DNA of 64,000 nucleotides from Alphaproteobacteria bacterium (GTDB taxonomy: Bacteria; Pseudomonadota; Alphaproteobacteria; GCA-2731375), in contig JAVKFY010000027.1 of assembly GCA_040223615.1 (NCBI GenBank), forward strand, positions 1,220 through 65,219. The letters are read 5' to 3'. Each line of letters starts with the position of its first letter. The stretch's first letter is position 1. Below are positions 1-58,671 of this stretch, in pieces. A program made the translations under genes and the position numbers. The notes below the pieces were generated by a model that was not told the DNA's origin, made no database searches, and saw only the letters and a list, made by a program, of their open reading frames with translations.

Positions 1-234
1 AATCCTCGGAAACAACCCGTGCAGCGCACCCGGACGCCGGTTGCCACGCTCTTCATCCCGCAAGGTGATGGCTGGACGCCTCTTTGGAACTACGTCAACC
101 CGCTGACGGTCTCCTTCAATCGACCGAGAGGAGATGTGCCGTCACCGGGCGAACAAGCACTCGACCGGGTTTGGCTGCGAAATGTGACAATCGGCTTCGA
201 CCGCCTCGTCAACAGCCTCGAAGATGCGCGCTAG
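1..234 (+). CDS. C-terminal fragment of a hypothetical protein (frame open from window edge)
   Basis: Frame 1 has no stop from nt 1 (NPRKQPVQRTRTPVATLF...SLEDAR*). Stop codon at 232-234. No recognisable motif. Confidence 0.3.
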   Translation, partial: NPRKQPVQRTRTPVATLFIPQGDGWTPLWNYVNPLTVSFNRPRGDVPSPGEQALDRVWLRNVTIGFDRLVNSLEDAR

Positions 235-303
235 ATTGGCGCGCTCATTGCGGCTGGGCATGTGTCACGCGTAGCCCCGTAAACACACCTCCAGAAACGA
301 GAA

Positions 304-342: not shown

Positions 343-2064
343 TCAGCTACACGCCGCGCTCTCGCCCGCATCCTCTTTCACCGCCGGAAAGCGCATCGAG
401 TCGGGCAGCCAGTCGCGGCCCTTGATGTCGTCGCCGGACGCATCGTCGCCAAGCTCGGCACAGCGCTTGAAGTGCCGGACCAACCCGGCCACCAGTGCGG
501 TCTTGCTGGTGTCCTTGAAGCTGCCCAGCCGGGAGGTACCACCGCTTTCCGCAGCGATGTCGGCCAATTGGTCCTTGCGGCGACCGGACAGGAACACGGT
601 ATCGGGTCGCCAGCACGTCTTCATGTCCACTGCCAGATCGACGGCAACCCGGTTGAACAGGCTCTCGCGGGTGTCCAGCACGTCGATGTCGTTTTGCCCG
701 AAGGTCAGGACCGTCAACAGCAGGTGCAGCCGCTCCAGATCGTCATCGGACAGGGCCGAAACGGCCTGATAGAGACCGACAGACGAGCCATGCTGGCGGG
801 ACAGCCTCGACCAGGCGCAGTCCTCGTCGTCTACCTCCGGCACCAGCAGCGTCAGCAGGTGACGGGCCTCGGCCTCCACGGCAGCGTAGGATGCTGACGG
901 TTCCTCCATCTCGGCACTGAGCGAAAGCGCCGAATGGGCATCTGTCCGGATGCGCGATGAGAAGTCATAGCCGCCCAGCATCTGCACCACGGCGATCTCC
1001 CGTGCCTTGCGCGGATTGGCCAGTAGTGCCGCCTGCACGGCCATCGTCTTGTGGGCGGCGATGTAGCGCAGCATCGGCTTTGAGTATTCAGGCTTCGGCT
1101 TGGGCGCGGCAGGCGCTTCGGCGGTTTCCGCCGCAACTTTCTCGGAGACGGTCGGCTCGGCCAACCCCTCCCTGACCTCGACACGTCCGCTCGGGCAGAA
1201 GTGAATGACCACCCCGGCCTCGTCGTCGTCCTCGGCCTCGTCGTACTGCCACCACGGCACGTGACCCGCCTGCACGACTTCAACCCATGCCGCGCTTTCC
1301 CGGTGTCGGGCGGCGAGCGCCTCGACGGCTTCGGCCTGCAACCGCAGGAACTGCTCTGCGTCATCGAAGAAGGTACTTTCCTCGCTGCCGAACAGGTCGG
1401 TGGAGAAGGTGCCGTCGTAGCGCTCAAGATCGAAGATCGCCAGCGCCACGCTCGGCTTTTCCCCGGTGAGGAGGTCGCGGATGTTCTCGGCGTCGTAGTG
1501 CCAGCCTTCCTCCAGCCGTGCGATCACGCCGCGCTGCTGTTCGTGCGTCCCCAGCGTCATCGCCTCGGCTACGGCAAGACTAAGGTCGCCGCTGCGCACC
1601 ATCTCCCTCGCCTCGGCACACAGCCCTGCGAGCGCCAGCCGCCGCTTGACGGTCAGCGCGCTCATCCCGGCCTTGGCCGCGATGTCCTCGATGTCGCCGC
1701 CGCCGTTCATCAACCCGGCGAATGCCTCGGCTTCATCCATCGCGTTCAGCGGTTCACGCTGGACGTTCTCGACGGTGGCGAGCCGCAGCGCGTCCCCGTT
1801 GTTCAAGCCCTTGCGGACTTCCACGGCGACCGGGAAGTCAGCGGCGATGTCGCCGCTCCCCGCCAGTAGCTGCATCGCCCGATAACGGCGCTCGCCGGAC
1901 ACGATCTCCCACTTGCGGCCCTTGCGCCGCACGACAAGGTTCTGCAACAGGCCGTCGGCCCTGATGGAAGCGGCCAGCCCTTCGATGGCGGCCACGTCCG
2001 CCGCCTTACGGGGATTGGCCTTCGGCGGCAGTAGCTGCCCCAGCTTTACGGTCTCTAACGTCAT
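343..2064 (-). CDS. ParB/Srx-like nuclease domain protein (573 aa), island-type
   Basis: N-terminal ParB/sulfiredoxin-like motifs (…NLVVRRKGRKWEIVSGERRYRA…) with a long C-terminal extension. GGAG 8 nt upstream of the ATG at 2062-2064. Confidence 0.7.
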   Translation of the reverse strand: MTLETVKLGQLLPPKANPRKAADVAAIEGLAASIRADGLLQNLVVRRKGRKWEIVSGERRYRAMQLLAGSGDIAADFPVAVEVRKGLNNGDALRLATVENVQREPLNAMDEAEAFAGLMNGGGDIEDIAAKAGMSALTVKRRLALAGLCAEAREMVRSGDLSLAVAEAMTLGTHEQQRGVIARLEEGWHYDAENIRDLLTGEKPSVALAIFDLERYDGTFSTDLFGSEESTFFDDAEQFLRLQAEAVEALAARHRESAAWVEVVQAGHVPWWQYDEAEDDDEAGVVIHFCPSGRVEVREGLAEPTVSEKVAAETAEAPAAPKPKPEYSKPMLRYIAAHKTMAVQAALLANPRKAREIAVVQMLGGYDFSSRIRTDAHSALSLSAEMEEPSASYAAVEAEARHLLTLLVPEVDDEDCAWSRLSRQHGSSVGLYQAVSALSDDDLERLHLLLTVLTFGQNDIDVLDTRESLFNRVAVDLAVDMKTCWRPDTVFLSGRRKDQLADIAAESGGTSRLGSFKDTSKTALVAGLVRHFKRCAELGDDASGDDIKGRDWLPDSMRFPAVKEDAGESAACS

Positions 2065-2619
2065 GGTCTTGCTCCTTTGGTCAGTTGGCGATGCTCAACG
2101 GCCCCATGTCCCCAACGGACACACGCCCGCGCATCAACCTCTGCCCAGCGGCGAGCGACCCCAGACCTTCAAACTGCGACCGCAGGGAGCACCTTCAGCG
2201 GGGTCGCGCCGACCCCCGGCAGGCGACAAGGAAGCCGCCCGCAGGGGTATTCGCCCCAACACGGGAGGCCGCCGCAGGCGGCCGAATGGAGCGGGCCGGG
2301 GCGAACGGCGACCTTGGCTTAGCCCTGCCGGAGTCGGCATAAGCTGTGGCCAGAGGGAACAGCGCGGTAGCGCGCCTCAACCGCAGCCCGAAGGGCCGAC
2401 CGTACCGGGGCGTTGCGGGGTGTCCCCGCTCGAAGGGGGTGTGTCGAAGACCCCGGGCTGAGACCAGGGGGAAGACTTTCCCCTCACAGATATCGACCGA
2501 AAGGAACTCGATCACGACAATACATGCAGTCATCGATAGGGATTGGGCCGATTGCCGGAACCGTCTCATCGAAGCACCGCGACGGTGCCGCCGTGGATGG
2601 ACAAGACGGCGGACATTGC

Positions 2620-2689
2620 TTCGTTCAAATGTGCTTTAGATGATCATCGATTTGATATATAAGACTTGGTAGATTCAGAAAGATGCTAA
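2620..2689 (+). promoter_or_regulatory. AT-rich putative promoter region upstream of the Qat operon
   Basis: Abrupt drop to ~35-40% GC (tgatcatcgatttgatatataagacttggtagattcagaaagatgctaaa) immediately before the qatA ATG at 2690, in an otherwise ~68% GC genome. Confidence 0.3.
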
Positions 2690-4555
2690 ATGTGGTCGGA
2701 TAACGAAACAAATAGAGATTTCCTGAACTTCCGTACCGTAGCCGTCACGGCTGCGGAAATGATAAGTCAGGCTAACGGTCAGCCCCTGTCGCTCGGGGTC
2801 TCGGGTAATTGGGGTGTTGGAAAGTCGTCAATGATTCGCTTGATTCGGGACGAACTGGAGTCCCGCAGCGATAAGACGTTCCTCACGGTCGAGTTCAATG
2901 CTTGGCTGTACCAAGGATTCGACGACGCACGCGCCGCGCTAATGGAAACCATTGCCAATGCACTACTGGCACACGCAAAGGACAACCAGACTGCCGTCGA
3001 CAAAGCGACAGAGTTCCTGAAGCGGGTGAACTGGGTGCGAGCAGCCGGTCTGGCGGTTGGGTCCGGCATGTCCATGGCTTTCGGACTACCACCGACCGGA
3101 CTTCTTGGAGAAGCGGTGCGCACCTACCAGGGGCTTGCCGATGGAGAGGTGACGCAGGAGGACTTGGATGCGGCAAAGGCAACGGGTTCCAATGCTGGCA
3201 AAGCCGGATCGTCACTGATCAAGCAAGCGCCTCAGACAACGCCGCCGCAAGAAATCCAGGACCTGCGTCGCCACTTTAGCGACACCCTCAAGGATATGGA
3301 CATTACTTTGGTAGTGTTCATTGATGACCTGGACCGCTGCCTACCAAATACGGCCATCGCTACTCTCGAAGCAATTCGGCTGTTCCTGTTCCTGGAGCAC
3401 ACTGCATTCATTATTGCAGCCGATGACAAGATGATTAGGCGCGCTGTACGGGCGCATTTCCAGTCCGTCGACCTCGACGATGAACTGGTGACCAATTATT
3501 TCGATAAGTTGATCCAGGTTCCACTTCGAGTCCCGCCCCTGGGTACCCAGGATGTACGCGCCTATCTGATGCTATTATTCATTGAGAATAGCGAACTTTC
3601 GCAGGAGAAGAGAGACTCCTTGCGCGAGGATATCTGCACGCAACTGGGTCAGACGTGGCTCGGCAAGAGAGTGGATCGGGCCTTCGTCGCGGGGTTGATC
3701 AAAGAGTGCCCGGAGCAACTGTCGCATCAGCTTGATCTTGCCGATCGGCTCGCGCCGATCATGACAACCTCTCCGCAGATTTCAGGTAACCCTCGGCTAA
3801 TCAAGCGGTTCTTGAACACCCTGTCGATTCGCATGTCGATCGCCCGAAGTCAGAATGTCCCTGCCGATGAAGCCGCTCTGGCCAAGATGCTGCTATTTGA
3901 GCGCTGTGGCAGCGAGGCCGCCTATGCAGATTTGGTGCGAGCCATCAACGAACATGACAAGGGCAAGCCACTGTTCCTCGGCCCGTGGGAGGAGGCTGTG
4001 GCGTCGGGCGGCGAACTACCCGAGACGATGCCGCAAGCATGGCAAGACGAATTCGTGAAGGACTGGTTGGCGCTCTCACCACCTTTCGCAGACCTGGACC
4101 TGCGGGCCGTCGCCTACGTCAGCCGCGAGCACCTGCCGATCATTGCCGCGGCAGACCAACTCAGCCCGGAGGGCGCTGATCTGCTCGGCGCTCTGTATGC
4201 AGTGAAAGAGCAGCCCAGCAAGGCGCTTGCAGTCAAGCTCAAGACGCTGAGCAAGCGCGAGATCACGTTCATCATGGCACGCCTGCTGGACCGGGCGCGC
4301 ACCGTCGATACCTGGGGTAGGCCGCCTATTCTGAATGCCTGCCTGACGGTGATTGAGGCAGACGACGGCCAGGCTGAACCCCTCGCAAATTTCCTCCGTC
4401 GTGATATTCCACTGGCTCGGCTCGAACCGTCGATCGTCGTCCTGCTTGCACACAAGACATGGGCGAAGGCCGTGCTGACGCATTGGGCTAACCAAAGCGA
4501 AACACCCGGTCCGGTGAAGAAGGCGATAGCCAGCGAAGCGAAGGGCAAGAAGTAG
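2690..4555 (+). CDS. qatA: QatA-like KAP-family P-loop NTPase
   Basis: Walker A GVSGNWGVGKSS near the N-terminus. 621 aa. First gene of four translationally coupled ORFs. Low GC relative to the host. Confidence 0.8.
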   Translation: MWSDNETNRDFLNFRTVAVTAAEMISQANGQPLSLGVSGNWGVGKSSMIRLIRDELESRSDKTFLTVEFNAWLYQGFDDARAALMETIANALLAHAKDNQTAVDKATEFLKRVNWVRAAGLAVGSGMSMAFGLPPTGLLGEAVRTYQGLADGEVTQEDLDAAKATGSNAGKAGSSLIKQAPQTTPPQEIQDLRRHFSDTLKDMDITLVVFIDDLDRCLPNTAIATLEAIRLFLFLEHTAFIIAADDKMIRRAVRAHFQSVDLDDELVTNYFDKLIQVPLRVPPLGTQDVRAYLMLLFIENSELSQEKRDSLREDICTQLGQTWLGKRVDRAFVAGLIKECPEQLSHQLDLADRLAPIMTTSPQISGNPRLIKRFLNTLSIRMSIARSQNVPADEAALAKMLLFERCGSEAAYADLVRAINEHDKGKPLFLGPWEEAVASGGELPETMPQAWQDEFVKDWLALSPPFADLDLRAVAYVSREHLPIIAAADQLSPEGADLLGALYAVKEQPSKALAVKLKTLSKREITFIMARLLDRARTVDTWGRPPILNACLTVIEADDGQAEPLANFLRRDIPLARLEPSIVVLLAHKTWAKAVLTHWANQSETPGPVKKAIASEAKGKK

Positions 4556-5466
4556 TGGGTACGTCGTCTTCCAGCAAAGGACCGGGAGGTGGCGTACCTC
4601 TGATACCGCCCTGGGTTCCGCCTGCTCCGCCGCAGAACCCGCCCGCGCCACCGCAGCAGCCTGCGCCAGCGCCCGGAGGCCCGCCGTCTCAGCCGAAGCC
4701 ATCTACGCCGCCGTCTCAGCCTGCACCGGGCCAGCCCGCACAGGTCGCAGCGCCACAACCCGCACCGGCAAGACCACCGGCGGGACCCAAGGCACCACCT
4801 CGCCGCTTTGCGGGCGCACGACAAAGCCTTGGCAGGTTTGCGAAGACTGGTTCGCAGGGTGATCTCGGCAGAGCACTAGGCCACTACACACGGACCGGCC
4901 TCGGCGGCGCTGGCCGCGCGGCAGGCCGTATGAACCGGACGGCGCAGCGCGCCGGACAACTCTACGGTGTCCTCGACGCACTGCGGACAGGCACGCCGAC
5001 ACCGGTCGATCTGGGCGTCAGCGTCGCAACGCTTACCGGCCTTCCTGCCCGCGACGTGGCCGATCGCGTCGCCAACGCACTGCATCCACCGGATGGAACG
5101 CAGGATGCGGAAGCTGGGCGAGATGCCATGGCACGCGCGTTGGCAGACGTGCAGAACGCCGCACCGGCCGCCGATCTGACCTCCCCCACGCCGGAACAGA
5201 TCGGCGTCATCATTGAACGCTACGTTGCCTACGACCTCTGCAATCGCATCGAGTTGGATATCGGCCAAGCTGTGCTGGACAAAGCGCCGAGCTATGCCGA
5301 GGGCATGCGACGCCTTGAGCAGATTGAGCGCTATGTGCGCGAGAAAGTGTCGGCACAGTTCAGAAGCAGGGAGGACCAGGGTCAGCGGCTGACCAGGCAG
5401 AGCGCCGAAGGTCTATCCCGAGGAGTGATCGAGGACACATTTGAAGTCTTCGAGGAGTACGTGTGA
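4555..5466 (+). CDS. qatB: QatB-like protein with Pro-rich N-terminal region
   Basis: GTG start overlaps the qatA stop (TAGTG). N-terminus MGTSSSSKGPGGG followed by PPxPP low-complexity sequence, then a globular C-terminal half. Position between the KAP ATPase and QueC-like genes matches Qat organisation. Confidence 0.65.
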   Translation: MGTSSSSKGPGGGVPLIPPWVPPAPPQNPPAPPQQPAPAPGGPPSQPKPSTPPSQPAPGQPAQVAAPQPAPARPPAGPKAPPRRFAGARQSLGRFAKTGSQGDLGRALGHYTRTGLGGAGRAAGRMNRTAQRAGQLYGVLDALRTGTPTPVDLGVSVATLTGLPARDVADRVANALHPPDGTQDAEAGRDAMARALADVQNAAPAADLTSPTPEQIGVIIERYVAYDLCNRIELDIGQAVLDKAPSYAEGMRRLEQIERYVREKVSAQFRSREDQGQRLTRQSAEGLSRGVIEDTFEVFEEYV

Positions 5467-6734
5467 TGCGCGTTCACTGTGCTCCGGCGGGAATCAAGAC
5501 GAAGCGATCGGACCTGCGGTACGTGCTCTACGAGCACTCCACCGATCCCGCGGTCGGCTCGATTGGCCCATCCATCATTTCCAGCGTCCGGAAATTCGGC
5601 CTGGCACCCTCAGCGAGGGCATGGGACTTCCTCTCAATCGCGCTCTCGGTCATCGGTGCCGATGAGGGCTGCACGCGAGCTACCAGTCCGGATGGATGGA
5701 CACGGGAAATCGAGCTGACCGTTTCTGTTGCCGATCCGAAGTTCTGGACATCGCAAACAGATCTGCTTGCCGCAGCGCTCTGCTTCCTGACCGGCGATAT
5801 CTGGTATCTGACGTTCGTGGCCGATGGCCTTTCGCCAACGCCACCGAAACACGCAGAGCCAAGGCAGGAGGACGCCGTCTGTCTATTGTCCGGCGGCATG
5901 GACAGCTTGATTGGCGCTCTGGATCTTCGGGCCGCTGGCAAAAGCCTCCTGTTCGTCAGCCAAGTGGCCAAAGGCGACAAGAAGACGCAGAGTTTCTTGG
6001 CGCAGGCGGTCGGTGGCAACCACGGACACCTGCAACTCAACCATCTGGTGCATCCGCCCGGTCCGTCCGAGCGCTCACAACGTGCACGCTCGCTGATCTT
6101 TCTAGGTTTCGGTGTCCTCGCAGCCACCAGCCTTCAGACCTATACCGGCGGCGCACCCGCCGACCTGTACATGCCGGAGAACGGGTTCATCAGTATCAAT
6201 GTAGCGCTGACACCGTTGCGCCTGGGTAGCTTGAGCACGCGCACAACGCACCCCTACTTCATCGGCCTGATCCAACAACTGTTGGGCAACGCAGGCATAA
6301 ACGTGCGTATCGTCAACCCGTATCAGTTCAAGACCAAGGGTGAGATGCTTGTTGGCTGCCAGAATCAGGCGTTCTTGAAAAAGCACATCGGCATCACCAC
6401 AAGCTGCGGCCGTTACGCCCGCAGTGGCTTCATGCATTGCGGTCGCTGCGTCCCCTGCTTGGTTAGACGCTCAGCCTTTCACCGTTGGGGTACCGACCCG
6501 ACAGCCGCTTACAAGTTCGATGACCTGTCAAAGCCCGACCACAGGCATCGTGACTTCGACGATGTACGCTCCGTCGGCATGGCCATCGAGATGGTACGCA
6601 AACGGGGTTTCGATCGCTGGGCGGGCGGCGCGATCAATGCAGCCCAGCTTGGCGACACCGCGCCGTATCGGGCGGTGGTGCAAAGGGGCCTGAAGGAAAT
6701 GAGCACCTACCTGAAGGCTGTCGGTGCCCTGTGA
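5463..6734 (+). CDS. qatC: QatC-like QueC-family PP-loop ATPase
   Basis: PP-loop motif LLSGGMDSLIGA. C-terminal Cys cluster CGRYARSGFMHCGRCVPC resembles the QueC zinc site. Start overlaps the qatB stop (GTGTGATG). Confidence 0.85.
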   Translation: MMRVHCAPAGIKTKRSDLRYVLYEHSTDPAVGSIGPSIISSVRKFGLAPSARAWDFLSIALSVIGADEGCTRATSPDGWTREIELTVSVADPKFWTSQTDLLAAALCFLTGDIWYLTFVADGLSPTPPKHAEPRQEDAVCLLSGGMDSLIGALDLRAAGKSLLFVSQVAKGDKKTQSFLAQAVGGNHGHLQLNHLVHPPGPSERSQRARSLIFLGFGVLAATSLQTYTGGAPADLYMPENGFISINVALTPLRLGSLSTRTTHPYFIGLIQQLLGNAGINVRIVNPYQFKTKGEMLVGCQNQAFLKKHIGITTSCGRYARSGFMHCGRCVPCLVRRSAFHRWGTDPTAAYKFDDLSKPDHRHRDFDDVRSVGMAIEMVRKRGFDRWAGGAINAAQLGDTAPYRAVVQRGLKEMSTYLKAVGAL

Positions 6735-7504
6735 TCGATTTCCACTGCCATGTCGATCTCTTCCCTGACCCCAAGGCCGTGCTGGCGGAGATCGAGGCGC
6801 GCGGCATGTATGTCCTTGTGGTCACGACGACCCCAAAGGCGTGGAAAGGAACGTCGCAGTTGGTGGCCGGGCACAAGCGGGTACGGGTGTCTCCGGGCCT
6901 GCATCCTGAGCTGGTGGCCGAGCGGCACACAGAGATGCCGCTGCTGTGCCATCTTGTCGGACAGTCGCCCTATGTGGGCGAAGTTGGCCTGGATGGAAGC
7001 CCCCAGCACAAGGGCAGCTACAAGCGCCAGGAAGAGGTGCTGGCACGAGTGCTTGGGGAGTGCAGAACACTGGGGGGCCGCATCCTCAGTATACATTCAC
7101 GCGCCGCAGCGAGCGGCGTCCTCGACCTAATTGAGGAACACTCGGGACTAGGCGTTCCTGTCCTGCACTGGTTTTCGGGCCGACCACGGGAACTGGACCG
7201 TGCAATTTCTCTTGGGTGCTGGTTCAGTGTGGGTCCGGCGATGACCCGCACGAAGAAAGGTCGCGCACTGGTCGAAGCGATGCCTGCTGACAGAGTACTT
7301 ACGGAAACCGATGGTCCGTTTGCACTGGCACAGAACAAATCCGGCAGCCTTATGCCTTGGGATGTGAGCCAAGCAGAGCGTGATCTGGCAGACTGCTGGC
7401 GGCAGGAAGAAGCTGAGGCTCGGGACACATTGATGTCTAACCTGCGCCGCCTTACGGACATTGCTAATGGAATCCCGCTGAAGCCTCGGACTGTCACTTT
7501 GTGA
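6731..7504 (+). CDS. qatD: QatD-like TatD-family metal-dependent DNase
   Basis: N-terminus MIDFHCHVDLF is the TatD signature. GTG start overlaps the qatC stop (GTGA). Confidence 0.85.
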   Translation: MIDFHCHVDLFPDPKAVLAEIEARGMYVLVVTTTPKAWKGTSQLVAGHKRVRVSPGLHPELVAERHTEMPLLCHLVGQSPYVGEVGLDGSPQHKGSYKRQEEVLARVLGECRTLGGRILSIHSRAAASGVLDLIEEHSGLGVPVLHWFSGRPRELDRAISLGCWFSVGPAMTRTKKGRALVEAMPADRVLTETDGPFALAQNKSGSLMPWDVSQAERDLADCWRQEEAEARDTLMSNLRRLTDIANGIPLKPRTVTL

Positions 7505-7617
7505 GAAGCGCACCCGTTTGCAGGTGCAAGCTCACCAAACTGGGTTGCTGATCATTCTGGAATCACGTCGCGCCTTCGACTATGTTTCCGCCACCCAATA
7601 GGAATCGGAGTCCCCGC

Positions 7618-7911
7618 ATGCCTCGCCGAAAATCCGTCGCCATCGATGAGAAGAACCTGAAAAAGGGTGAACTGCGCAAGCTCAACGCACTGCGCAAGTC
7701 GCTTGGCCCCGATATCGCCGAAAGAGCGTTCTCCGAATGGTATTCGGCCAGGCCGGAGCTTAGTGAAGACATTCCGGACCGCGGCGCAGAGATGATCGCC
7801 GAAGCGGTCTACAAGCTGGTAGATGGCAAGAACCTCCAAATTCCACGTGGAGGCTATTTGGTGCGTCGTGGCCGCGGGCGGGTTATTGTCGAAAGATTGA
7901 ACTCAGACTAA
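7618..7911 (+). CDS. Small basic hypothetical protein (97 aa; alternative upstream start at 7582)
   Basis: GGAG 8 nt upstream of the ATG at 7618. Lys/Arg-rich N-terminus (PRRKSVAIDEKNLKKGELRKLNALRK). Low GC. Lies immediately upstream of the DUF3800-like gene. Confidence 0.45.
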   Translation: MPRRKSVAIDEKNLKKGELRKLNALRKSLGPDIAERAFSEWYSARPELSEDIPDRGAEMIAEAVYKLVDGKNLQIPRGGYLVRRGRGRVIVERLNSD

Positions 7912-7973
7912 CCTATACTCTTGCGGCCGTTCCTCGACCGCGCGATGGCAGGAACGTTGGTTTCTAAAGAAGT

Positions 7974-9050
7974 ATGACAACTATCTATCTGGACGAGACT
8001 GGATTCACAGGCGAGGACCTGCTTGCAAAAGACCAGCCTGTTTTCGTCCAGGCAACAATGAACTACAATCAAGAAGAAGCTCGCGATCTAATCTCAACCT
8101 ACTTCCCTGCCTTGAAGGCAGATGAACTTAAATACTCTCGATTGCGCAGGAATCCCAAGCACAGAGAGAGTGTCATAAGACTAATTGAGCGGGTATCTTC
8201 GGATTCCGACCGATCGGCCACGTGGATTGCGCATAAGGAGTTCGCTCTTGTAACGCTCCTTGTCGACTGGTGGGTTGAGCCACTCGCACACGAGAGCGGC
8301 TTCAATCTGTACGAGGATGGCGCAAATCTGGCGATGGCTAATCTGTTCTTCTACTGTATGGAAGGCTTCTGGCATCGGGGGTTTCGTACGAAGCTCTTGT
8401 TCCAGTTTCAAAGAATGATGCGAACCAGAAACCCGCAATACTTCCGGGAGTGTCGGGCTTTCATCAACCGAGAACGGGGGCGAACCGATGACAACCGAGA
8501 AGAGATCATACGATACCTCTGGCCCTCATTCGAACTACTCGGATTCTCTCATGTGAGAGGGTTGCCGAACCAAGTGTTGGATATCGCACTACCTGGTTTG
8601 GTCGCTCTCGGGCAAACGTGGCGATCACGCGACGAAGGTCACTGGTCGGTTGTGCATGATCAGTCGTCCAATATGGCGAAGCAGAAATGGCTATGGGACG
8701 CTCTGTCTTCGCCGGAAGTGGCTGCCGCGCGATTTGACGGCCCTGCTGGCCCTCAGCATTTCCCCATGAATGTTACCGAGACCCGGTTCGCCGACTCGAA
8801 GAGCGAAATCCAGCTTCAACTCTGCGACGTTCTCGCCGGAGCTACAGCGACATACCTAAGGCGCTCCGTGGAACAAGTCGATGATGTGGGCTATGCGGAG
8901 ACATTGGCGCGGGCAGGAATCGACAACCTAATCATAGGCGGCCTCTGGCCAAGGCCCGAGGTGTCGCCGGATGAGCTGGGCATGCGGGGCTGGGATGGCA
9001 ACAAGGCCATTGAATGGATCAGTGATCAGATAGCGAGAAGCAGAAGGTAG
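7974..9050 (+). CDS. DUF3800-like protein (358 aa)
   Basis: Starts MTTIYLDETGFTG (DUF3800-type Y-x-D-E-T-G). C-terminal IQLQLCDVLAGA motif. ~45% GC, strongly atypical for this genome. Confidence 0.65.
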   Translation: MTTIYLDETGFTGEDLLAKDQPVFVQATMNYNQEEARDLISTYFPALKADELKYSRLRRNPKHRESVIRLIERVSSDSDRSATWIAHKEFALVTLLVDWWVEPLAHESGFNLYEDGANLAMANLFFYCMEGFWHRGFRTKLLFQFQRMMRTRNPQYFRECRAFINRERGRTDDNREEIIRYLWPSFELLGFSHVRGLPNQVLDIALPGLVALGQTWRSRDEGHWSVVHDQSSNMAKQKWLWDALSSPEVAAARFDGPAGPQHFPMNVTETRFADSKSEIQLQLCDVLAGATATYLRRSVEQVDDVGYAETLARAGIDNLIIGGLWPRPEVSPDELGMRGWDGNKAIEWISDQIARSRR

Positions 9051-9099
9051 CAGGGACTCACGCGAGCTTCCGTCAGGAGCACGAAAACGCCGATCAGGA

Positions 9100-9179
9100 T
9101 GGTGCGGGCGGGGGGACTCGAACCCCCACGGGCGCATGCCCTACGGATTTTCGTACCGACTACGGCTTTCGCCGCCCGC
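9100..9179 (-). tRNA. tRNA-like element (possible tRNA pseudogene or att-site remnant) lacking a canonical anticodon arm
   Basis: Minus strand reads GCGGGCG...GGGGGTTCGAGTCCCCC-CGCCCGC-A-CCA. That is a perfect 7-bp acceptor stem, a canonical T-arm/T-loop and an encoded CCA. No 5-bp/7-nt anticodon stem-loop or D-arm can be drawn in the 45 nt between them. Confidence 0.35.
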
Positions 9180-9372
9180 CAGCCTAGGCGGTTTGCGGTC
9201 TGGACTATCCCTTCACCGTATCCGGGCTTCCGCCCGGATGTAGGTGCTGCCCGTCTAGTCTCTACACCTTCCCGGCCGCTGGCCGGGCTTGGCTCGGGAT
9301 TGCCATTTCACAGGTTCCCCCGAGTTTGAGCAGTTCTACTCCTGCGGTTTCCCGCAAGGCACTCAAGCGTCT

Positions 9373-9410
9373 CAAGTCCGTTGCGTCTGCCAGTTCCGCC
9401 ACGCCCGCAC
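9373..9410. repeat. Direct repeat copy A (att-like) flanking the integrase
   Basis: caagtccgttgcgtctgccagttccgccacgcccgcac. 33/39 identity with copy B at 10783-10820, same orientation. Confidence 0.55.
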
Positions 9411-9451
9411 ACCTTCTGTATAAAGGCGGCTCCGGCGACCTGCAAAACCTA

Positions 9452-10660
9452 TTAGGGCTGCGCTGCGCCTGCCCCCGTCTCGCCTTCACCCACGGCCTGT
9501 TTAGTCTTCGGCCGCTCCCGGCGGACGTTGATGGCGGCAACATCAAGGGCCGTCCGCAGATGAACGGCGTAGTACTTTTCGATCATCTCCACGCTGGTGC
9601 GGCAGTTCTTGGCGATCTGGTAGATGTCCGCACCCTCCATGAGCCGAAGGCATATGTAGGTGTGGCGCAGGCTGTAGGCGGTCCTCCGGTTGCCCTCCCG
9701 ATCGAACTTCAACGCCTCCTCAGCCAGCACCGCATTGAGCATCTCGCGGTGGTGGATCGGGAACAGCCGCGCCGTCATCGTCTCGGGCGCATTCCGCTTC
9801 AGGATGCGCCGATAGGGCGTCACGGCCCCCGGCATGCTCATGCAGTAGCCGACGCCTCGCTTGCCCCGAACGACGATCTCCAGGATTTCCTCGTCGCTGT
9901 CATCGACGACCTTGACGTCCCGGAACTCCAGTCTGGAAGCCTCGTCAGGGCGCAAGCCCGTGTTGGCCATGAACAGCACGTAGTCGTGTAGCTGCTCCGC
10001 GTGCCATTGCCAGCGCTTGCCCTTGGCCTCCCTCGCCCGCTTGCGCGTCGCGGTGTAGAGCTGCCGATACTCGTCGGGCGAGAACCAAGCCCGATGCGAG
10101 ACCTTGCCGGAGCTGCGGTACGGCTCCGACAGATCCGGCAGGTGTTGCAGCCAGCCGTGGCGCAAGGCGGTCTTGAGGACCTGGCGCAGGCAGACGATTT
10201 CCTGATGCATGGTGTTCCGGGCGGGCGGCTTGCCGTAAAGCTCCATTGCCTTTTGACGGCGGTGAATGCGGTACTCCTGCACCTGACCGGGCGATATCTC
10301 TGAAAGCCCCATGCTGCCGAAGAACGGGATCAGGTGAAGCTTCAGGCGGCGCTTGTGCCCGGCCACATACTGGGCGTTGCGCTCCCCCTCGGTGATGATC
10401 TCGTACTCGCGCTCGAACTGTACCGCCGCGTCCTTGAAGGTCTTCTCGGTCTTGATCTCGCCGCTGCGCAGCTTGCCACGCAGATCAAGGTACCAGTCCT
10501 CCGCTACCTCCTTCGCCCGCGCCAGGCTTTGCTCCTTGGTGGTCGCCCGCCTGTTCTTGCCCGCCTCGTAGGCCGAACACTGCCAGAAGCGGCTGCCCGG
10601 CCGCTTGTATACGTGCAGCCGACCGCCCATCAGAGAGAAGGTTCCGGCGCTCTCGCTCAT
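9452..10660 (-). CDS. int: Tyrosine-type site-specific recombinase / phage integrase
   Basis: 402 aa. C-terminal catalytic residues in the LRHTYICL…Y context (R..H..RH..Y). AT-rich promoter region upstream at 10661-10780. Confidence 0.9.
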   Translation of the reverse strand: MSESAGTFSLMGGRLHVYKRPGSRFWQCSAYEAGKNRRATTKEQSLARAKEVAEDWYLDLRGKLRSGEIKTEKTFKDAAVQFEREYEIITEGERNAQYVAGHKRRLKLHLIPFFGSMGLSEISPGQVQEYRIHRRQKAMELYGKPPARNTMHQEIVCLRQVLKTALRHGWLQHLPDLSEPYRSSGKVSHRAWFSPDEYRQLYTATRKRAREAKGKRWQWHAEQLHDYVLFMANTGLRPDEASRLEFRDVKVVDDSDEEILEIVVRGKRGVGYCMSMPGAVTPYRRILKRNAPETMTARLFPIHHREMLNAVLAEEALKFDREGNRRTAYSLRHTYICLRLMEGADIYQIAKNCRTSVEMIEKYYAVHLRTALDVAAINVRRERPKTKQAVGEGETGAGAAQP

Positions 10661-11654: not shown

Positions 11655-12428
11655 CTACGCCACCTCGGCGCGCGACGGCAGGGTCGAGATCGCGTCGGCG
11701 TAGGTGCGCAGTGCCTCGCGGCCGCGCGGGCTGGGGGCGTAGACGCCGCGCCTGACACGCTCGAACCAGCCATAGACGTCGCGCTGCAGGATGCCGGCGG
11801 CGCGGCCGACCCCGGTCTGCGCCCGCAGCATCGCCAGCGACAGCTCACCGGCGCGATCCAGCGCGGCCAGGCAGCGCAGCGCGTCCTGGCGGTAGGCGGT
11901 CATGACTTTCACCCGGTTGGCCCCGCCGGTGTTGGGGTCGCCGACGCGGTGCGCGAACTCCTTCAGCAGCCGCCGGCGGCGGCGCGGATTGCCGCGCGGC
12001 ACGTAGGGCACGGGGTCGAGGATCGCGCGCGCTTCGCCATGCTCGACCAGCAGGATCCCGAGCCCGATGCGCCGGCACAGCGCCTTGATGTCGCGCCAGC
12101 GCCGACCGAGCCGGGGCACCGCGATGTAGACCGCGTCGGTGAGCTTGAGCCGGTTCACGCCCTGCAGCAGCAGGTCGAGGTTGAAGCGCACCTTGAGCTC
12201 GACCACGACGACCGCGCCGTCGCGCACCGCGACCACGTCGCAGCCCTCGACCTCCGCCTTCACGTCATAGCCCTGGCCGGCCAGGAACGCCTTCACCGGC
12301 GCGTAGAGTTCGGCCTCGCGCAACCGCCTCGCCTCCGAATCTCCCGCGATGGTAGCCGGACCGGCACGCAATTTGCTCCTGATCGCCAGGGCGCGCCGGT
12401 ATCGCGCGTCGGCGGAGGGCAAACGCAT
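11655..12428 (-). CDS. Conserved hypothetical protein with PD-(D/E)xK-like motif
   Basis: …CDVVAV…VVVELKV… resembles a restriction-endonuclease-like core, with a C-terminal Arg-rich region. Its start codon overlaps the divergent EF-hand gene start (gcATGa read on both strands). Confidence 0.5.
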   Translation of the reverse strand: MRLPSADARYRRALAIRSKLRAGPATIAGDSEARRLREAELYAPVKAFLAGQGYDVKAEVEGCDVVAVRDGAVVVVELKVRFNLDLLLQGVNRLKLTDAVYIAVPRLGRRWRDIKALCRRIGLGILLVEHGEARAILDPVPYVPRGNPRRRRRLLKEFAHRVGDPNTGGANRVKVMTAYRQDALRCLAALDRAGELSLAMLRAQTGVGRAAGILQRDVYGWFERVRRGVYAPSPRGREALRTYADAISTLPSRAEVA

Positions 12429-13449
12429 GACGATTCACGGTATCGGCCACGGTCACGGTCACCATTTCCACGGACTCGGGCGGCACAGCTTCGGCCGGGC
12501 GGACGGCGACGACGACGGCAAGCTCAGCCGCGAGGAGCTCGAAACTGCCGGGCAAGATTTGCCGGGCGGCAAGAAACGCCTGGCGCGGCTGGAGGCGCGG
12601 TTCGACAAGATCGACTCGGACGGCGACGGGGCGCTGACCCGCACGGAGATTCGCGACGGCATCCGCGCCGACATGCGCGACCTGCTGTTGCGCAGCCAGG
12701 AGGCGCGCGACACGCGCCGCGCGGAACGGCTGATGGACAAGGCCGACGGCGACGACGACGGCCTGCTGAGCGCCGACGAGCTCGACGCATTCGCCGAGAA
12801 CGTGCGGCCCGGCAGCCGCATGGCGGCACGGGTCGAGCTGCTGCAACGTTTCTTCGATGCCGCCGACGGCGACGAGAATGGCGGGCTCAGCACCAGGGAG
12901 ATCGCCGGCTTCCTGGGCGAGGTGCGCCAGGCGTATGGCGATTTTGTCGACGGCCTGCGCGCCGACGACGCCTTCGGCCAGTTCCTGGCCGAGCGGTTCG
13001 GCCCCAAGGCGACGACCGACGAGGACGGCGCGGCGCCCGACAGCACGGTCACGACGACGACCACGACTGTCACCACGACGACCGAGCCGGCCAGCGAGCC
13101 CGACGAGACCACGGCACCGGCACCGATCCCGTTCCACGGCAAGCGCTACGGCTTCTTCGGCGAGCGCGGCGACCTGTTGCTGCGCTACTTCGACCAGGCC
13201 GATGGCGACGACGATGGCGGCCTGACCAAGGACGAGATCAATGGCTTCTTCAAGGAACTGAAGGGCGCGTTCCGCGATTTCGTCTCCGGCTTGCGCGAGC
13301 AGGACGCCTTCGGTCAGTTCCTCGACGCCCGCTTCGCCGCCCCGGCGGAGAGCGACGAAGCGCCGGAGGAAGCGGGCGACGACGGCGAGATCACGACCAC
13401 CGTCACCACCACGACAACGACCACCACCACCACGGTGACGACCGGTTAG
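12427..13449 (+). CDS. EF-hand calcium-binding repeat protein with Thr-rich tracts
   Basis: Five canonical EF loops (DGDDDGKLSREE, DSDGDGALTRTE, DGDDDGLLSADE, DGDENGGLSTRE, DGDDDGGLTKDE). Internal duplication. TTTTTVTTTTE and TTTVTTTTTTTTTTVTTG tracts. Confidence 0.8.
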   Translation: MTIHGIGHGHGHHFHGLGRHSFGRADGDDDGKLSREELETAGQDLPGGKKRLARLEARFDKIDSDGDGALTRTEIRDGIRADMRDLLLRSQEARDTRRAERLMDKADGDDDGLLSADELDAFAENVRPGSRMAARVELLQRFFDAADGDENGGLSTREIAGFLGEVRQAYGDFVDGLRADDAFGQFLAERFGPKATTDEDGAAPDSTVTTTTTTVTTTTEPASEPDETTAPAPIPFHGKRYGFFGERGDLLLRYFDQADGDDDGGLTKDEINGFFKELKGAFRDFVSGLREQDAFGQFLDARFAAPAESDEAPEEAGDDGEITTTVTTTTTTTTTTVTTG

Positions 13450-54653: not shown

Positions 54654-55877
54654 ATGCCGGTGTTCGAATACCGCGCGGTGGCGCCGGACGGCGAGGTCAC
54701 CGACGGCGAGATGGAGGCCAGCGACCGCGCCGAGGTGATCCAGCGCCTGCAGGCCAGCGACTACCTGCCGATCCGGGCCGACCCAAAGGGCGCCGCGCCG
54801 GCGCGCGCGAGCGGCCTGTGGGCGATGCTGACGCAGCCCATCGGGCAACGCCACGGGCTGGGCGGCCGGCCGCTGGCCCGGTTCGCGCGCCAGCTCGCCG
54901 GACTGCTGGACGCCGGCCTCACCGTCGAACAGGCGTTGACCGTGCTGCGCGGCGCGGAGGACGCCCGGCTGGCCGCGACCGCCGAACGTCTGCTCGGCCA
55001 GGTGCGCGGCGGGCAGGCGTTGTCGCAGGCCGCCGAACGCGCCGGATTCCCTGCCCTGTTCGTGGCGTTGCTGCGCGCCGGTGAGACCGGCGGCGACCTG
55101 GCTGGCGCAACGGACCGTATCGCGCGCTACCTCGAACGTGCCCGCGCCGCCGTCGAGCAGGTGCAGTCGGCGCTGATCTATCCGGTCATCCTGGTCGTGG
55201 TGGCGGCGCTGTCGGTCGCGGTGCTGATGGTCGCGGTGATCCCCGAGTTCGAGCAGATGTTCCGCCAGGCCGGCCAGGCACTGCCGTGGCCGACCGCGGT
55301 GCTGGTCGCCATCGCCGATGCAGTCGACGCCGCCGGCTGGCTGCTGCCGATCGTGCTGCTGGGCGGCTGGCTGGCCTTGCGCATGGCGCTGACCAAGCCG
55401 GGCCCGCGCCGGTCGTTGCACGCGGCATGGCTGCGGTTGCCGGTGATCGGGCGCCTGGCGCGTTGGATCGCGGCCGAACGATTCGCGCGGGCGCTGGGCG
55501 CTCTGTTGGGCGGCGGGGTGCCGCTGCCGCGCGCGGTCGAGCTGGGAGCCGAGGCCGCCGGAAACCAGGCCGTCGCCGATCACCTGGACAACGCCGCCCG
55601 CGCCCTGCGCCAGGGCGAGACGCTGGCCGACGCGGCCGGTGGCGATCTGCTGCCGCGTTCCATGGTCGACCTGCTGCGTGTCGGCGAGGCCACCGGCCGG
55701 CTCGGCCCGCTGGCGGAACAGGCCGCCGACATGCAGGCAGCCGAGATAGATGCCGCGGTGCGCCGGCTGATCGCCGTGCTGGTGCCGGCGCTGACGCTGG
55801 CGCTGGGTGCACTGGTCGGCGGCATCATCCTGTCGGTCCTGGCCGCCGTCCTCGGCCTGAACGAGCTGGTGCTGTGA
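54654..55877 (+). CDS. gspF: Type II secretion inner-membrane platform protein GspF
   Basis: Duplicated GspF/PilC domains (…LSQAAERAGFPALFVALLRAGE…). Confidence 0.9.
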   Translation: MPVFEYRAVAPDGEVTDGEMEASDRAEVIQRLQASDYLPIRADPKGAAPARASGLWAMLTQPIGQRHGLGGRPLARFARQLAGLLDAGLTVEQALTVLRGAEDARLAATAERLLGQVRGGQALSQAAERAGFPALFVALLRAGETGGDLAGATDRIARYLERARAAVEQVQSALIYPVILVVVAALSVAVLMVAVIPEFEQMFRQAGQALPWPTAVLVAIADAVDAAGWLLPIVLLGGWLALRMALTKPGPRRSLHAAWLRLPVIGRLARWIAAERFARALGALLGGGVPLPRAVELGAEAAGNQAVADHLDNAARALRQGETLADAAGGDLLPRSMVDLLRVGEATGRLGPLAEQAADMQAAEIDAAVRRLIAVLVPALTLALGALVGGIILSVLAAVLGLNELVL

Positions 55878-56299
55878 GAGAAGACAACAGAGACGAGCAG
55901 GGGTTTACGCTGCTGGAGATGCTGGTGGTGCTGGCCCTGCTGGCGCTGGTCGCCGGCTTCGCGGCGCCGCGCGTCATCGGGCTGTTCGCCAAGGCCAAGG
56001 GCGACGTGGCGCTGGTCCAGGTGGAGATGCTGGCCGGCGCGCTGGACCACTACCGGCTCGACGTCGGCACCTACCCCAGCGACGAACAGGGGCTTGCGGC
56101 GCTGGTCGCCAAGCCAGGCGACGCGCCGCGCTGGAACGGCCCCTACCTGCAGGGCAGCGAGGTGCCGATGGACCCCTGGGGCCGGCCATATCGCTACCGC
56201 GTGGTGGACGAGCCCGGCCGCGGCTTCGAGATCGTCTCGCTCGGCGCCGACGGCGCGGAAGGCGGCGATGGCGACGACGCCGACATACGTAGCAAGTAA
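55874..56299 (+). CDS. gspG: Major pseudopilin GspG
   Basis: Prepilin leader …QGFTLLEMLVVLALL. …DPWGRPYRY… G-pseudopilin signature. GTG start overlaps the gspF stop. Confidence 0.85.
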   Translation: MREDNRDEQGFTLLEMLVVLALLALVAGFAAPRVIGLFAKAKGDVALVQVEMLAGALDHYRLDVGTYPSDEQGLAALVAKPGDAPRWNGPYLQGSEVPMDPWGRPYRYRVVDEPGRGFEIVSLGADGAEGGDGDDADIRSK

Positions 56300-56302
56300 G
56301 TG

Positions 56303-56400
56303 TCTCCCGTCATGCCAGCGAAGGCTGGCATCCAGGGGCCATGGGGCGACGTCCTCGCCCGGCGGGACCGCTGCCTGGATTCCTGCCTTCGCCGGCATGA
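56303..56400. repeat. REP-like double palindrome between gspG and gspH
   Basis: cgtcatgccagcgaaggctggcatccagg … cctggattcctgccttcgccggcATGacgg. The last hairpin contains the gspH start codon. Confidence 0.55.
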
Positions 56401-58658: not shown

Positions 58659-58671
58659 TATCGGTCCCCGC

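Follow-up and report, generated by a model that had tools for sequence, protein, structure and literature searches.

DUF3800 is a widespread domain, and proteins that carry it recur in immune contexts, namely type VII retrons, Cas12a2/Cas12a3 loci and Cas13-CASK loci. Short DUF3800 proteins are also linked to the RNA motifs DUF3800-I to -XI and are thought to work with structured RNA. We know of no anti-phage phenotype on record for any DUF3800 protein. The RNase H-like fold is a mixed five-stranded sheet flanked by helices. Published predictions assign DUF3800 an RNase H- or RNase H2-like fold (PMC7736814, PMC10910872), and we use the DE and QxxD motifs of the domain as defined previously (PMC7736814).

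Here we analyze a long-form DUF3800 gene and the small gene directly upstream of it in the window, the whole 64,000-nt stretch of alphaproteobacterial DNA to which all coordinates refer. An earlier note on this DNA had proposed that the two form a module of a nuclease and a small nucleic-acid-binding partner. We conclude that they are probably independent genes lying side by side, the one a DUF3800 cassette encoding a putative nuclease, the other a lone member of a small-protein family.

Gene content and boundaries of the locus

The QatABCD operon of the window, with the Pfam domains KAP_NTPase, QueC and TatD, represents a known defence system in complete form and serves here as context only. 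It is followed by the small gene and the DUF3800 gene (Table 1), each of which has hundreds of homologues, so both are real genes. Read from its first ATG, the small ORF covers 7582–7911 and encodes 109 residues. All 56 aligned homologues, however, start at the second ATG (MPRRK...), and we therefore place the start there, where a GGAG lies 8 nt upstream. The Lys/Arg-rich ORF with its own GGAG described in the earlier note is thus real, basic and provided with a ribosome-binding site, at a length of 97 residues and not 109. The DUF3800-type protein that the note placed about 60 nt farther downstream begins after 62 nt and passes the Pfam gathering score.

Table 1. Features of the window in and around the low-GC block
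Feature	Position	Strand	Description
ParB_N/HTH_ParB protein	343..2064	-	573 aa; conjugative-element backbone
QatA-QatB-QatC-QatD operon	2690..7504	+	PADLOC QatA 1e-158, QatB 3e-43, QatC 2e-104, QatD 7e-87
Small basic protein gene	7618..7911	+	97 aa; ORF call, start set by 57-sequence alignment
Long-form DUF3800 gene	7974..9050	+	358 aa; Pfam PF12686, phrog_12991
tRNA-Leu(UAA) gene with intron	9100..9408	-	Rfam, ARAGORN
Tyrosine integrase	9452..10660	-	402 aa; Pfam Phage_int_SAM_3 above cutoff, Phage_integrase below cutoff

The note had also called both genes very low in GC, which holds relative to the host only (55.8% for the small gene and 53.9% for the DUF3800 gene, vs ~69%). GC at third codon positions (GC3) is 0.63 for the small gene, 0.60 for the DUF3800 gene and 0.65–0.67 for the Qat genes, compared with 0.83–0.85 for the flanking ParB and integrase genes (integrase 0.85). 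Qat, the small gene and the DUF3800 gene form a cargo block of ~6.5 kb (about 2500–9050) with low GC that sits between the conjugative-element ParB gene and the tRNA-Leu/integrase junction. The Qat operon and the integrase on either side of the two genes, and with them the defence-island context, are as the note had them; the tRNA-Leu(UAA) gene next to the integrase had been missed. Its anticodon loop is interrupted by a 222-nt group I intron (9152–9373; Rfam Intron_gpI, 47.1 bits, E 2.5e-10, full-length model), ARAGORN calls tRNA-Leu(taa) both in the sequence with the intron removed and when introns are allowed, and the exon halves resemble other tRNA-Leu genes. Because 49 nt separate its 3' end from the stop codon of DUF3800, this tRNA gene marks an edge of the island. 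A direct (att) repeat of the tRNA 3' end was not found within the window, which puts the far border of the island beyond it. A candidate for an extra small-protein or DUF3800 gene downstream of ParB, at 1–342, was rejected.

Promoter and terminator scans and folding of the two intergenic regions gave nothing above shuffled sequences; with no predicted terminator in the 62-nt gap, the small gene and the DUF3800 gene (and Qat) may be co-transcribed at this one locus. It is nevertheless very unlikely that both genes, or DUF3800 alone, are accessory parts of an extended Qat operon. They share strand and low GC3 with Qat, follow it at gaps of 113 and 62 nt with no predicted terminator, and DUF3800-type genes occur near the QatD end at two other loci, in an Acetobacteraceae MAG (L023) and on an A. 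tumefaciens plasmid (L131). At the first of these, however, the DUF3800 gene is convergent with QatD, and at the second it belongs to another DUF3800 subfamily, is coupled to an integrase and is separated from QatD by an opposite-strand gene. Close Qat plasmids (L132, L133) lack both genes, and in the first-fetched part of our sample only one DUF3800 or small-protein locus (L023) has Qat. Qat is, moreover, defined and detected as four genes, and neither the small nor the DUF3800 protein matches the PADLOC Qat models.

The two families do not share loci

Co-occurrence was examined in a limited, pattern-seeded sample of loci (L numbers), 36 with DUF3800 relatives and 97 with relatives of the small protein; none holds both families. 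No homologue of the small protein lies within ±6 kb of the DUF3800 relatives at 23 genome loci (the HMM positive control scored 149 bits), and no DUF3800 gene was found at 90 small-protein loci, for 45 of which the sequence extends at least 1.2 kb downstream. The nearest relatives of the DUF3800 protein, at 61–62% identity (L001, L002, L126, L129), are all encoded without the small protein, and the nearest relatives of the small protein, at 71–76% (L024, L028, L029), are all encoded without DUF3800. The co-occurrence across genomes by which the earlier note proposed to check its module is therefore absent from the sampled loci, and the new two-component defence system that it proposed is refuted.

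The adjacency, common strand and similar composition of the two genes would also fit a lineage-specific pair, in which the small protein, basic and plausibly nucleic-acid-binding, regulates or partners the DUF3800 nuclease at this locus only. We regard such a pair as very unlikely, because each family is strongly conserved on its own, in unrelated contexts, because the 36 and 97 loci do not overlap, and because the closest relatives of either gene do without the other.

The small basic protein belongs to a large family of lone genes

The small protein has a pI of 9.9, with Lys and Arg making up 21 of its 97 residues. Its AlphaFold2 (AF2) model (pLDDT 75) shows three helices followed by a C-terminal Arg/Gly-rich β-hairpin (RGGYLVRRGRGRVIVER). 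The protein has no match in Pfam, NCBIfam, PHROG or the PDB, and searches with it and its 56 homologues against Pfam, PHROG, NCBIfam and PADLOC gave no credible family. Its top match in PADLOC-DB v2 is PtuA, at a non-significant E of 0.02, a profile search of PDB sequences returned noise only, and Foldseek of the model against the PDB and BFVD gave nothing significant. The family nevertheless exceeds 1,750 clusters at 90% identity and counts at least 457 at 50%, and a second copy is present in the same MAG. The rare longer members yielded two fusions, one with a pentapeptide repeat and one with E3_binding.

Most members are encoded as lone genes, no neighbour gene is conserved among their loci, and several settings are chromosomal (L025, L027, L029, L122). 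Settings on mobile elements are also frequent: at L028 the order is ArdC-DUF2958-ParB-small-DUF736-HTH_17-S26, the ParB directly upstream of the small gene being 27% identical to that of the window; at L124 the homologue lies beside ArdA; and recombinases are found nearby at L030–L033. A scan of viral contigs gave two relatives, and the family was not found among PLSDB plasmids. The 97-residue protein thus belongs to a very large family whose members are small, basic, strongly conserved and encoded as lone genes, and is not a dedicated partner of DUF3800. It may bind nucleic acid through the Arg/Gly-rich hairpin and the basic N-terminal helix, and might act as a small regulator or nucleoid-type protein of mobile elements.

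Sequence and predicted fold of the long-form DUF3800 protein

The DUF3800 ORF carries MTTIYLDETGFTG and IQLQLCDVLAGA and has 157 homologues in our searches. It matches Pfam DUF3800 with 26.8 bits (gathering score 21), residues 4–292 covering profile positions 2–147 of 149, and phrog_12991 over its full length (1e-43). With these families it shares a DE motif at the N terminus and QxxD at the C terminus; it exceeds the 149 positions of the Pfam profile by a helical insertion of about 110–140 residues (117–219) that interrupts the core and by a C-terminal extension of ~65 residues. Recognizable features are an N-terminal DETGFTGED, HKE at 87–89, E102, D229-x-S231 and QLQxCD at 280–285. The conserved acidic residues that the earlier note expected of an RNase H-like active site are present: D7, E8, E102, D203, D229 and D285 are invariant across 50 sequences, as is Q282.

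In the AF2 model (pLDDT 92.6, pTM 0.91), D7 and E8 end strand 1, E102 lies in the helix after strand 3, D229 ends strand 4 and D285 lies in the next helix. This order of strands and helices would place the invariant residues as in RNase H-like enzymes, in a DEDD-type carboxylate set. The RNase H-like fold suggested in the note comes from the published predictions; structure and profile comparison did not recover it: Foldseek of the model against the PDB and BFVD gave nothing significant, a profile search of PDB sequences gave no match, and an hhalign comparison of the DUF3800 alignment with E. coli RNase HII stayed below significance (probability 0.07). That non-significant alignment paired the DS...QxxD region of DUF3800 with the GDS...AASILA region of RNase HII. 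The likeness to RNase HII lies in the adjacent Asp-Glu followed by Gly on strand 1 (DExG), in the additional conserved Asp residues that follow a later strand and lie in the next helix, and in a compatible order of secondary structure; the large helical insertion and the lack of a significant profile or Foldseek match set the two apart.

From these features we infer a metal-dependent nuclease with an RNase H(II)-like core. Strand 1 would contribute D7-E8 to its active site, the segment after strand 4 D229, and the QxxD helix D285; the ~110-residue insertion and the C-terminal subdomain would regulate the activity or direct it to its target. Most probably, the gene encodes a nuclease that acts as a single protein.

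The DUF3800 gene is a one-gene cassette

No neighbour gene is conserved among the DUF3800 loci, and around the gene we found neither conserved non-coding flanks nor flanking or terminal inverted repeats. Its composition can stand apart from its surroundings, as at L129 (GC3 0.63 vs 0.79–0.94 for the neighbours) and L002 (0.58 vs 0.72). A tRNA-Leu gene lies 66 nt upstream at L001. The ParB gene of an integrative and conjugative element (ICE), its product 48% identical to the window ParB, lies directly upstream at L129/L130, and a ParB homologue lies ~1.1 kb upstream at L015, with Fic in between. At L126 a truncated integrase precedes a DUF3800 gene whose product is 61% identical to that of the window. 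A P2-like phage encodes a 26%-identical homologue between its tail-fibre-assembly and tail-sheath genes, and distant homologues are found on IncHI plasmids, among them R27; the viral contig scan gave no relatives. A raw listing of neighbours includes pAgo, LmuB, AbiEii, CapP, QatC, DUF4238, RmrA and PDC-M68, and about one third of the neighbour genes are housekeeping genes. A common mobile unit formed by a transposase gene upstream of the R27 homologue and a 461-residue gene upstream of the phage homologue was rejected, the proteins being unrelated. The DUF3800 gene is thus a self-contained cassette of one gene, with no conserved partner or flanking element, that moves among integrase-proximal, tRNA-proximal and ICE/prophage cargo slots.

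The recurrence of recombinases raises the alternative that DUF3800 is a recombination accessory, for instance a nuclease or strand-processing factor acting with the tyrosine integrase, rather than a defence gene or a mere passenger. Within ~2 kb of the long-form gene there are recombinase genes or fragments in the window and at L002, L019, L126–L128 and L129, and the L126 fragment shares 64% identity with the integrase of the window. A distant DUF3800 subfamily of ~390 residues shows translational coupling to a tyrosine integrase, the stop codon of one gene abutting or overlapping the start codon of the next, and lies beside an RHE_PE00001 gene in all four repABC plasmids examined (L131, L135, L136, L137). 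In this plasmid module DUF3800 adjoins the integrase, and Qat or other defence cargo lies at the opposite end, so that the order at L131 (Qat-RHE-DUF3800-int) recalls that of the window (Qat-small-DUF3800-tRNA-int). The window nevertheless has no RHE_PE00001 gene, its integrase belongs to an unrelated family and is convergent with DUF3800 instead of coupled to it, and the plasmid DUF3800 proteins form another subfamily, 29% identical to that of the window over the N-terminal 163 residues only. At least 20 of ~30 distinct long-form loci have no recombinase nearby, orientation and spacing relative to the integrase vary from case to case, with a tRNA gene intervening in the window, and the P2-like phage homologue occupies a cargo slot in the tail region with no integrase within the 11 kb examined. 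A recombination role is, on balance, rather doubtful.

Also unlikely is a role for DUF3800, and perhaps for the small protein, as a post-transfer establishment or anti-defence factor of the leading-region type. Such a role would suit the ICE locus L129, where the ParB-like gene directly upstream of DUF3800 is next to a T4CP gene, R27, where DUF3800 lies among a thermonuclease, a PLD protein and an orphan cytosine methyltransferase, and the small-protein homologues beside ArdA (L124) and ArdC/ParB (L028). Many loci, however, are chromosomal with no transfer genes in view, the neighbours of DUF3800 are typically defence and not anti-defence genes, and we found neither protein to resemble a known anti-defence protein.

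Finally, DUF3800 could work with an unrecognized structured RNA, possibly related to tRNA. Genes for DUF3800 proteins are associated with eleven RNA motifs (PMC5737381), such proteins are found with the tRNA-cleaving Cas12a3 system (PMC13594972) and with Cas13 CASK, which signals via a tRNA-derived messenger (bioRxiv 10.64898/2026.08.25.746378), and the DUF3800 genes of the window and L001 abut tRNA-Leu genes. This is quite improbable here. None of the Rfam DUF3800 motifs reaches the gathering score in the window or at 26 DUF3800 loci scanned, and at E ≤ 1 the region 7400–9600 has no match to DUF3800-I to -XI, drum or skipping-rope, only intron and tRNA-like matches. Nor is there a conserved non-coding flank at DUF3800 genes, and integration of islands at tRNA genes better explains the tRNA adjacency.

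Discussion

The preferred reading is that the long-form DUF3800 gene is a stand-alone cassette, and the likeliest of its possible roles, at somewhat less than even odds, is single-protein exclusion of invading nucleic acid, anti-phage or anti-plasmid. In its general form, that long-form DUF3800 proteins of ~360 residues are a family of single-protein nucleases hopping as cassettes among ICE, plasmid and P2-like prophage slots and conferring immunity alone, the proposal is possible but falls short of an even chance; the helical insertion would then be the sensor and the RNase HII-like DEDD centre the effector.

With the two-component system gone, the value left is modest. A DUF3800 protein that stands alone, is compact and confidently modelled and shows a clear catalytic signature offers biochemistry a good starting point, and the survey documents a long-form gene that moves by itself. 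The integrase-coupled sister subfamily beside a variable defence-cargo slot on repABC plasmids could help to explain how such slots are built. The 97-residue family is large, has no Pfam or NCBIfam annotation, and has mobile-element links worth pursuing.

The earlier view that no named system matches the locus agrees with the PADLOC searches (E of at least 0.02 for both proteins). The DUF3800 protein has no significant match in PADLOC-DB v2, the best being PDC-M04A (E 0.037) and PDC-S51 (E 0.057), weak and partial matches to candidate models that span ~30 residues around the QxxD motif. Among described systems, the type VII retron effector (cluster 2165) belongs to the same domain family, is predicted to be RNase H2-like and serves a defence-type system as its non-RT protein (Mestre et al., 2020, PMC7736814). 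In the retron proteins the Q of QxxD is missing; the window protein keeps Q282-x-x-D285, and no reverse transcriptase domain is found among the window neighbours and no msr/msd RNA nearby. Elsewhere in the sample an RVT_1 gene occurs at a single DUF3800 locus (L125), ~3 kb away. The CRISPR-linked proteins, TPR-DUF3800 of Cas12a2/Cas12a3 and Csx32 of Cas13 CASK, share the domain and the immune context (PMC10910872, PMC13594972, bioRxiv 10.64898/2026.08.25.746378). The window protein differs in standing alone, with DUF3800 its only Pfam domain and no TPR; the window has no array-like repeats, and no cas genes are found among the neighbours. DUF4238 of the P2 hot spot (Rousset et al., 2022, PMC9122126) is likewise a one-gene cassette with variable neighbours, and the two families meet in their settings: a DUF3800 homologue occupies a cargo slot of a P2-like phage, and DUF4238 lies directly upstream of DUF3800 at L014.

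The small gene and the DUF3800 gene do not form a module

The earlier note proposed that the gene for a small basic protein and the DUF3800 gene that follows it make up a two-gene defence module. It correctly described two ORFs, which lie on the plus strand, the second of them DUF3800 (Pfam DUF3800, 26.8 bits against a gathering score of 21), between a Qat operon, which PADLOC reports as a complete QatABCD, and a downstream tyrosine integrase. The two genes are not a pair. We fetched 23 genome loci (L001-L023) with DUF3800 relatives at 25-62% identity and scanned them, translated in all six frames, with an HMM from 120 small-protein homologues (positive control: window small protein, 149 bits); none of the 23 gave a match. 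Conversely, a DUF3800 relative is absent from all 90 small-protein loci (80 from metagenomes, ten from exact look-ups; 45 extending 1.2 kb or more downstream). With the closest metagenomic DUF3800 relatives (L125-L130, 61-62% identity) and annotated plasmid and phage loci added later, the final tally was 36 DUF3800 and 97 small-protein loci, none with both genes. The gene after the nearest small-protein relatives is DUF736 (L028, 76% identity) or etfB (L029, 71%), and L024 (75%) has no recognisable gene next downstream. All-against-all clustering of neighbours gave no conserved partner for either family. The earlier note had set beforehand, as its refuting condition, that the genes do not co-occur elsewhere, and in the other loci examined they never do; a true pair is highly improbable.

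Layout and composition of the window

The window is part of a contig from an alphaproteobacterial MAG. We place the start of the small gene at the second ATG because 56 of 56 aligned homologues begin there (MPRRK); a GGAG lies 8 nt upstream. The ORF and its GGAG stand as first described, with the length of 97-109 aa settled at 97. The product has a pI of 9.9. The DUF3800 protein has the N-terminus MTTIYLDETGFTG and also carries IQLQLCDVLAGA; its match to phrog_12991 (1e-43) spans the whole protein. The two genes have a GC content of 54-56% versus ~69% in the host, so that the 'very low GC' reported before is low only in relative terms. GC3 is 0.60-0.67 across the block of Qat, small gene and DUF3800, versus 0.83 for the flanking ParB gene and 0.85 for the integrase.

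The DUF3800 stop codon is separated by 49 nt from the 3' end of a tRNA-Leu(UAA) gene that the earlier note overlooked. Split by a group I intron, this tRNA gene was missed by default ARAGORN and by Rfam at gathering score (47.1 bits, cutoff 50). The intron sits between U34 and A35, exactly where the classic intron of tRNA-Leu in cyanobacteria and plastids is found. The complete tRNA gene has the integrase, host-like in GC3, on its 5' side and the low-GC foreign block on its 3' side, an order that differs from the usual tRNA-int-island arrangement. The tRNA 3' end is not repeated anywhere in the window. The block (Qat, a stray small-gene copy and the DUF3800 cassette) is most likely low-GC cargo at a tRNA-Leu/integrase hot spot, and its host element would be integrative and probably conjugative.

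Elsewhere in the window, a repeated 51-nt segment (direct-repeat family D1) encodes GFTLLE(L/M)LVV-type N-termini. They resemble those of prepilins and would point to several pseudopilin genes in a row, e.g. a cluster for type II secretion or type IV pili. A 366-aa ORF, picked up as direct-repeat family D3, has four acidic DGDDDG...ELD repeats, EF-hand-like in look, and poly-Thr tracts; the opposite strand contains long overlapping ORFs, typical of high-GC DNA.

Positions of features in the window, in comparison loci (L numbers) and in the DUF3800 protein model (residues)
Feature	Location	Position	Strand	Detail
ParB_N/HTH_ParB gene	window	343-2064	-	~573 aa
QatABCD operon	window	2690-7504		complete; E-values 3e-43 to 1e-158
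Small gene	window	7618-7911	+	97 aa; readable from 7582 as 109 aa
DUF3800 gene	window	7974-9050	+	358 aa; starts 62 nt past small gene
tRNA-Leu(UAA) gene	window	9100-9408	-	222-nt intron, 9152-9373
Tyrosine integrase	window	9452-10660	-	
366-aa ORF	window	12349-13449	+	
51-nt repeats	window	55767-59780		
ParB gene	L129	2165-3886		
ParB gene	L028	3091-4827		
Fic-DUF3800 neighbourhood	L015	5326-7068		Fic 36 nt from DUF3800
Fic-DUF3800 neighbourhood	L034	4871-7074		Fic overlaps DUF3800 start
Small-protein gene	L024	1706-1999		identical to P0125
DUF3800-type C-terminal fragment	L023	2-346	+	
QatD-QatC	L023	664-2743	-	
RHE_PE00001-DUF3800-integrase	L131	5625-7717		
RHE_PE00001-DUF3800-integrase	L135	4489-6860		
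RHE_PE00001-DUF3800-integrase	L136	4501-6848		
RHE_PE00001-DUF3800-integrase	L137	4480-6776		
Strand 1	model	2-9		ends in D7-E8
Strand 2	model	23-29		then helices
Strand 3	model	81-87		then long helix 88-107 with E102
Insertion	model	117-219		all-helical
Strand 4	model	224-229		ends in D229
Strand	model	267-273		then helix 279-299 with Q280-L-Q282-x-x-D285
C-terminal subdomain	model			small; last element

The DUF3800 gene behaves as a one-gene cassette

The same-strand upstream neighbour of DUF3800 varies by locus: Fic (L015, L034), DUF4238 (L014), trypsin-like peptidases (L005, L125), a purine-biosynthesis gene fragment (L012) and unknowns. The 135 neighbours include housekeeping genes and many defence proteins (pAgo, LmuB, AbiEii, CapP, RmrA, PDC-M68, QatC and a type II methyltransferase). 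Low GC3 is confined to the DUF3800 gene in L129 (0.63) and L002 (0.58), with neighbours at 0.72-0.94, and the gene has neither conserved non-coding sequence around it nor flanking inverted repeats. Because its neighbours vary, its GC3 differs from theirs in these two loci and its flanks lack conservation, the gene behaves as a one-gene cassette.

The cassette turns up time and again at similar kinds of site. It adjoins the tRNA-Leu 3' end in the window and L001. In L129 and L130 the gene just before it encodes an ICE ParB_N/HTH_ParB protein 48% identical to the window ParB, with a T4CP gene alongside; in L015 a 30%-identical ParB lies ~1.1 kb upstream, with the Fic gene in between. Tyrosine recombinases occur nearby in L002, L019, L129 and L126, the last one truncated and 64% identical to the window integrase. 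Distant homologues (26-32% identity) occur in a P2-like phage, flanked by its tail-fibre-assembly and tail-sheath genes; in P2, this is where the non-essential Z/fun cargo locus lies. Other distant homologues are carried by IncHI plasmids such as R27. A role of DUF3800 in establishment or anti-defence is quite unlikely.

The ~573-aa ParB protein belongs to conjugative-element backbones. Its gene is directly followed by DUF3800 in L129, and that of a 27%-identical relative by a small-protein homologue in L028, so the slot downstream may be a cargo site. The window ParB gene is 5.5 kb away on the opposite strand. In L015 and L034, which are unrelated, a Fic gene directly precedes DUF3800; this could reflect a subfamily-specific pairing.

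The small protein

The small-protein family comprises >1,750 clusters at 90% identity and at least 457 at 50%, nearly all members having 90-130 aa. L14, G17, R20-K21-L22, L25-R26-K27, G30, F38, W41, D54, P76, G79 and R84-G-R-G-R88 are invariant. The family has no match in Pfam, NCBIfam, PHROGs, PADLOC or PDB. An AF2 model (pLDDT 75, pTM 0.39) has three helices and, at the C-terminus, a hairpin rich in Arg and Gly; the model gave no structural match. The gene is typically lone. Chromosomal copies have ordinary neighbours and neighbour-like GC3 (L025, L027, L122, L029); others lie on mobile elements, in the order ArdC-DUF2958-ParB-small-DUF736-HTH_17-S26 peptidase (L028) or ArdA-x-small with a resolvase (L124), with a serine recombinase on one side and a tyrosine integrase on the other (L030-33), or beside AlpA and a transposase (L120). 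A second copy (P0125, 75% identity) is on another contig of the same MAG, and its identical counterpart in L024, a sequencing-run assembly contig, is preceded by a resolvase and two small ORFs. One member, P0307, is fused to pentapeptide repeats. Its putative role is nucleic-acid binding, either as a small regulator or as a protein of the nucleoid type, which mobile elements would often have recruited.

The DUF3800 protein is a putative nuclease

Across 50 full-length homologues, D7, E8, G10, T12-G13-E14-D15, E51, K88, E102, D203, D229, S275, Q282 and D285 are invariant. These include acidic residues (D7, E8, E102, D203, D229, D285), as the earlier note expected of an RNase-H-like active site, and the DE and QxxD motifs, which define DUF3800 (PMC7736814). 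The AlphaFold2 model is confident (pLDDT 92.6, pTM 0.91). The function to which we commit is that of a putative self-sufficient metal-dependent nuclease. The Rfam RNA motifs DUF3800-I to -XI (PMC5737381, PMC11701678) occur in neither the window nor 26 related loci, and an RNA-linked role is very unlikely.

Qat and DUF3800 probably have integrase-proximal slots in common

QatD was searched against plasmids to test the Qat link. A. tumefaciens plasmid pAt15-1187 has the order QatABCD, RHE_PE00001 (opposite strand), DUF3800 (393 aa), integrase; this DUF3800 belongs to another subfamily (29% identical across 163 N-terminal residues). We looked at four repABC plasmids, from Agrobacterium, Bradyrhizobium, Bosea and Ensifer. 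In all four, a DUF3800 gene of this subfamily (~390 aa) follows an opposite-strand RHE_PE00001, and its stop abuts or overlaps the start of a tyrosine integrase gene. The defence-like cargo on the far side of this module differs in each (Qat; S8 peptidase and ATPase; ImmA/IrrE and nucleotidyltransferase; DUF3732), and the module may be a cargo-capture hot spot. The pattern raises the real alternative that DUF3800 serves the recombination module as an integrase or recombination accessory, which we consider unlikely.

Two further plasmids with Qat carry an integrase of the same family but lack DUF3800. A second Qat-DUF3800 neighbourhood, on an Acetobacteraceae MAG contig (L023), is arranged differently, the DUF3800-type fragment being convergent with QatD-QatC. 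A Qat accessory is highly improbable; on our reading, Qat and DUF3800 have integrase-proximal cargo slots in common and DUF3800 is no Qat component. For the putative nuclease, a role in defence or exclusion is the likeliest of those weighed, if somewhat short of probable. The window DUF3800 is a newly found member of an already known, uncharacterised family.
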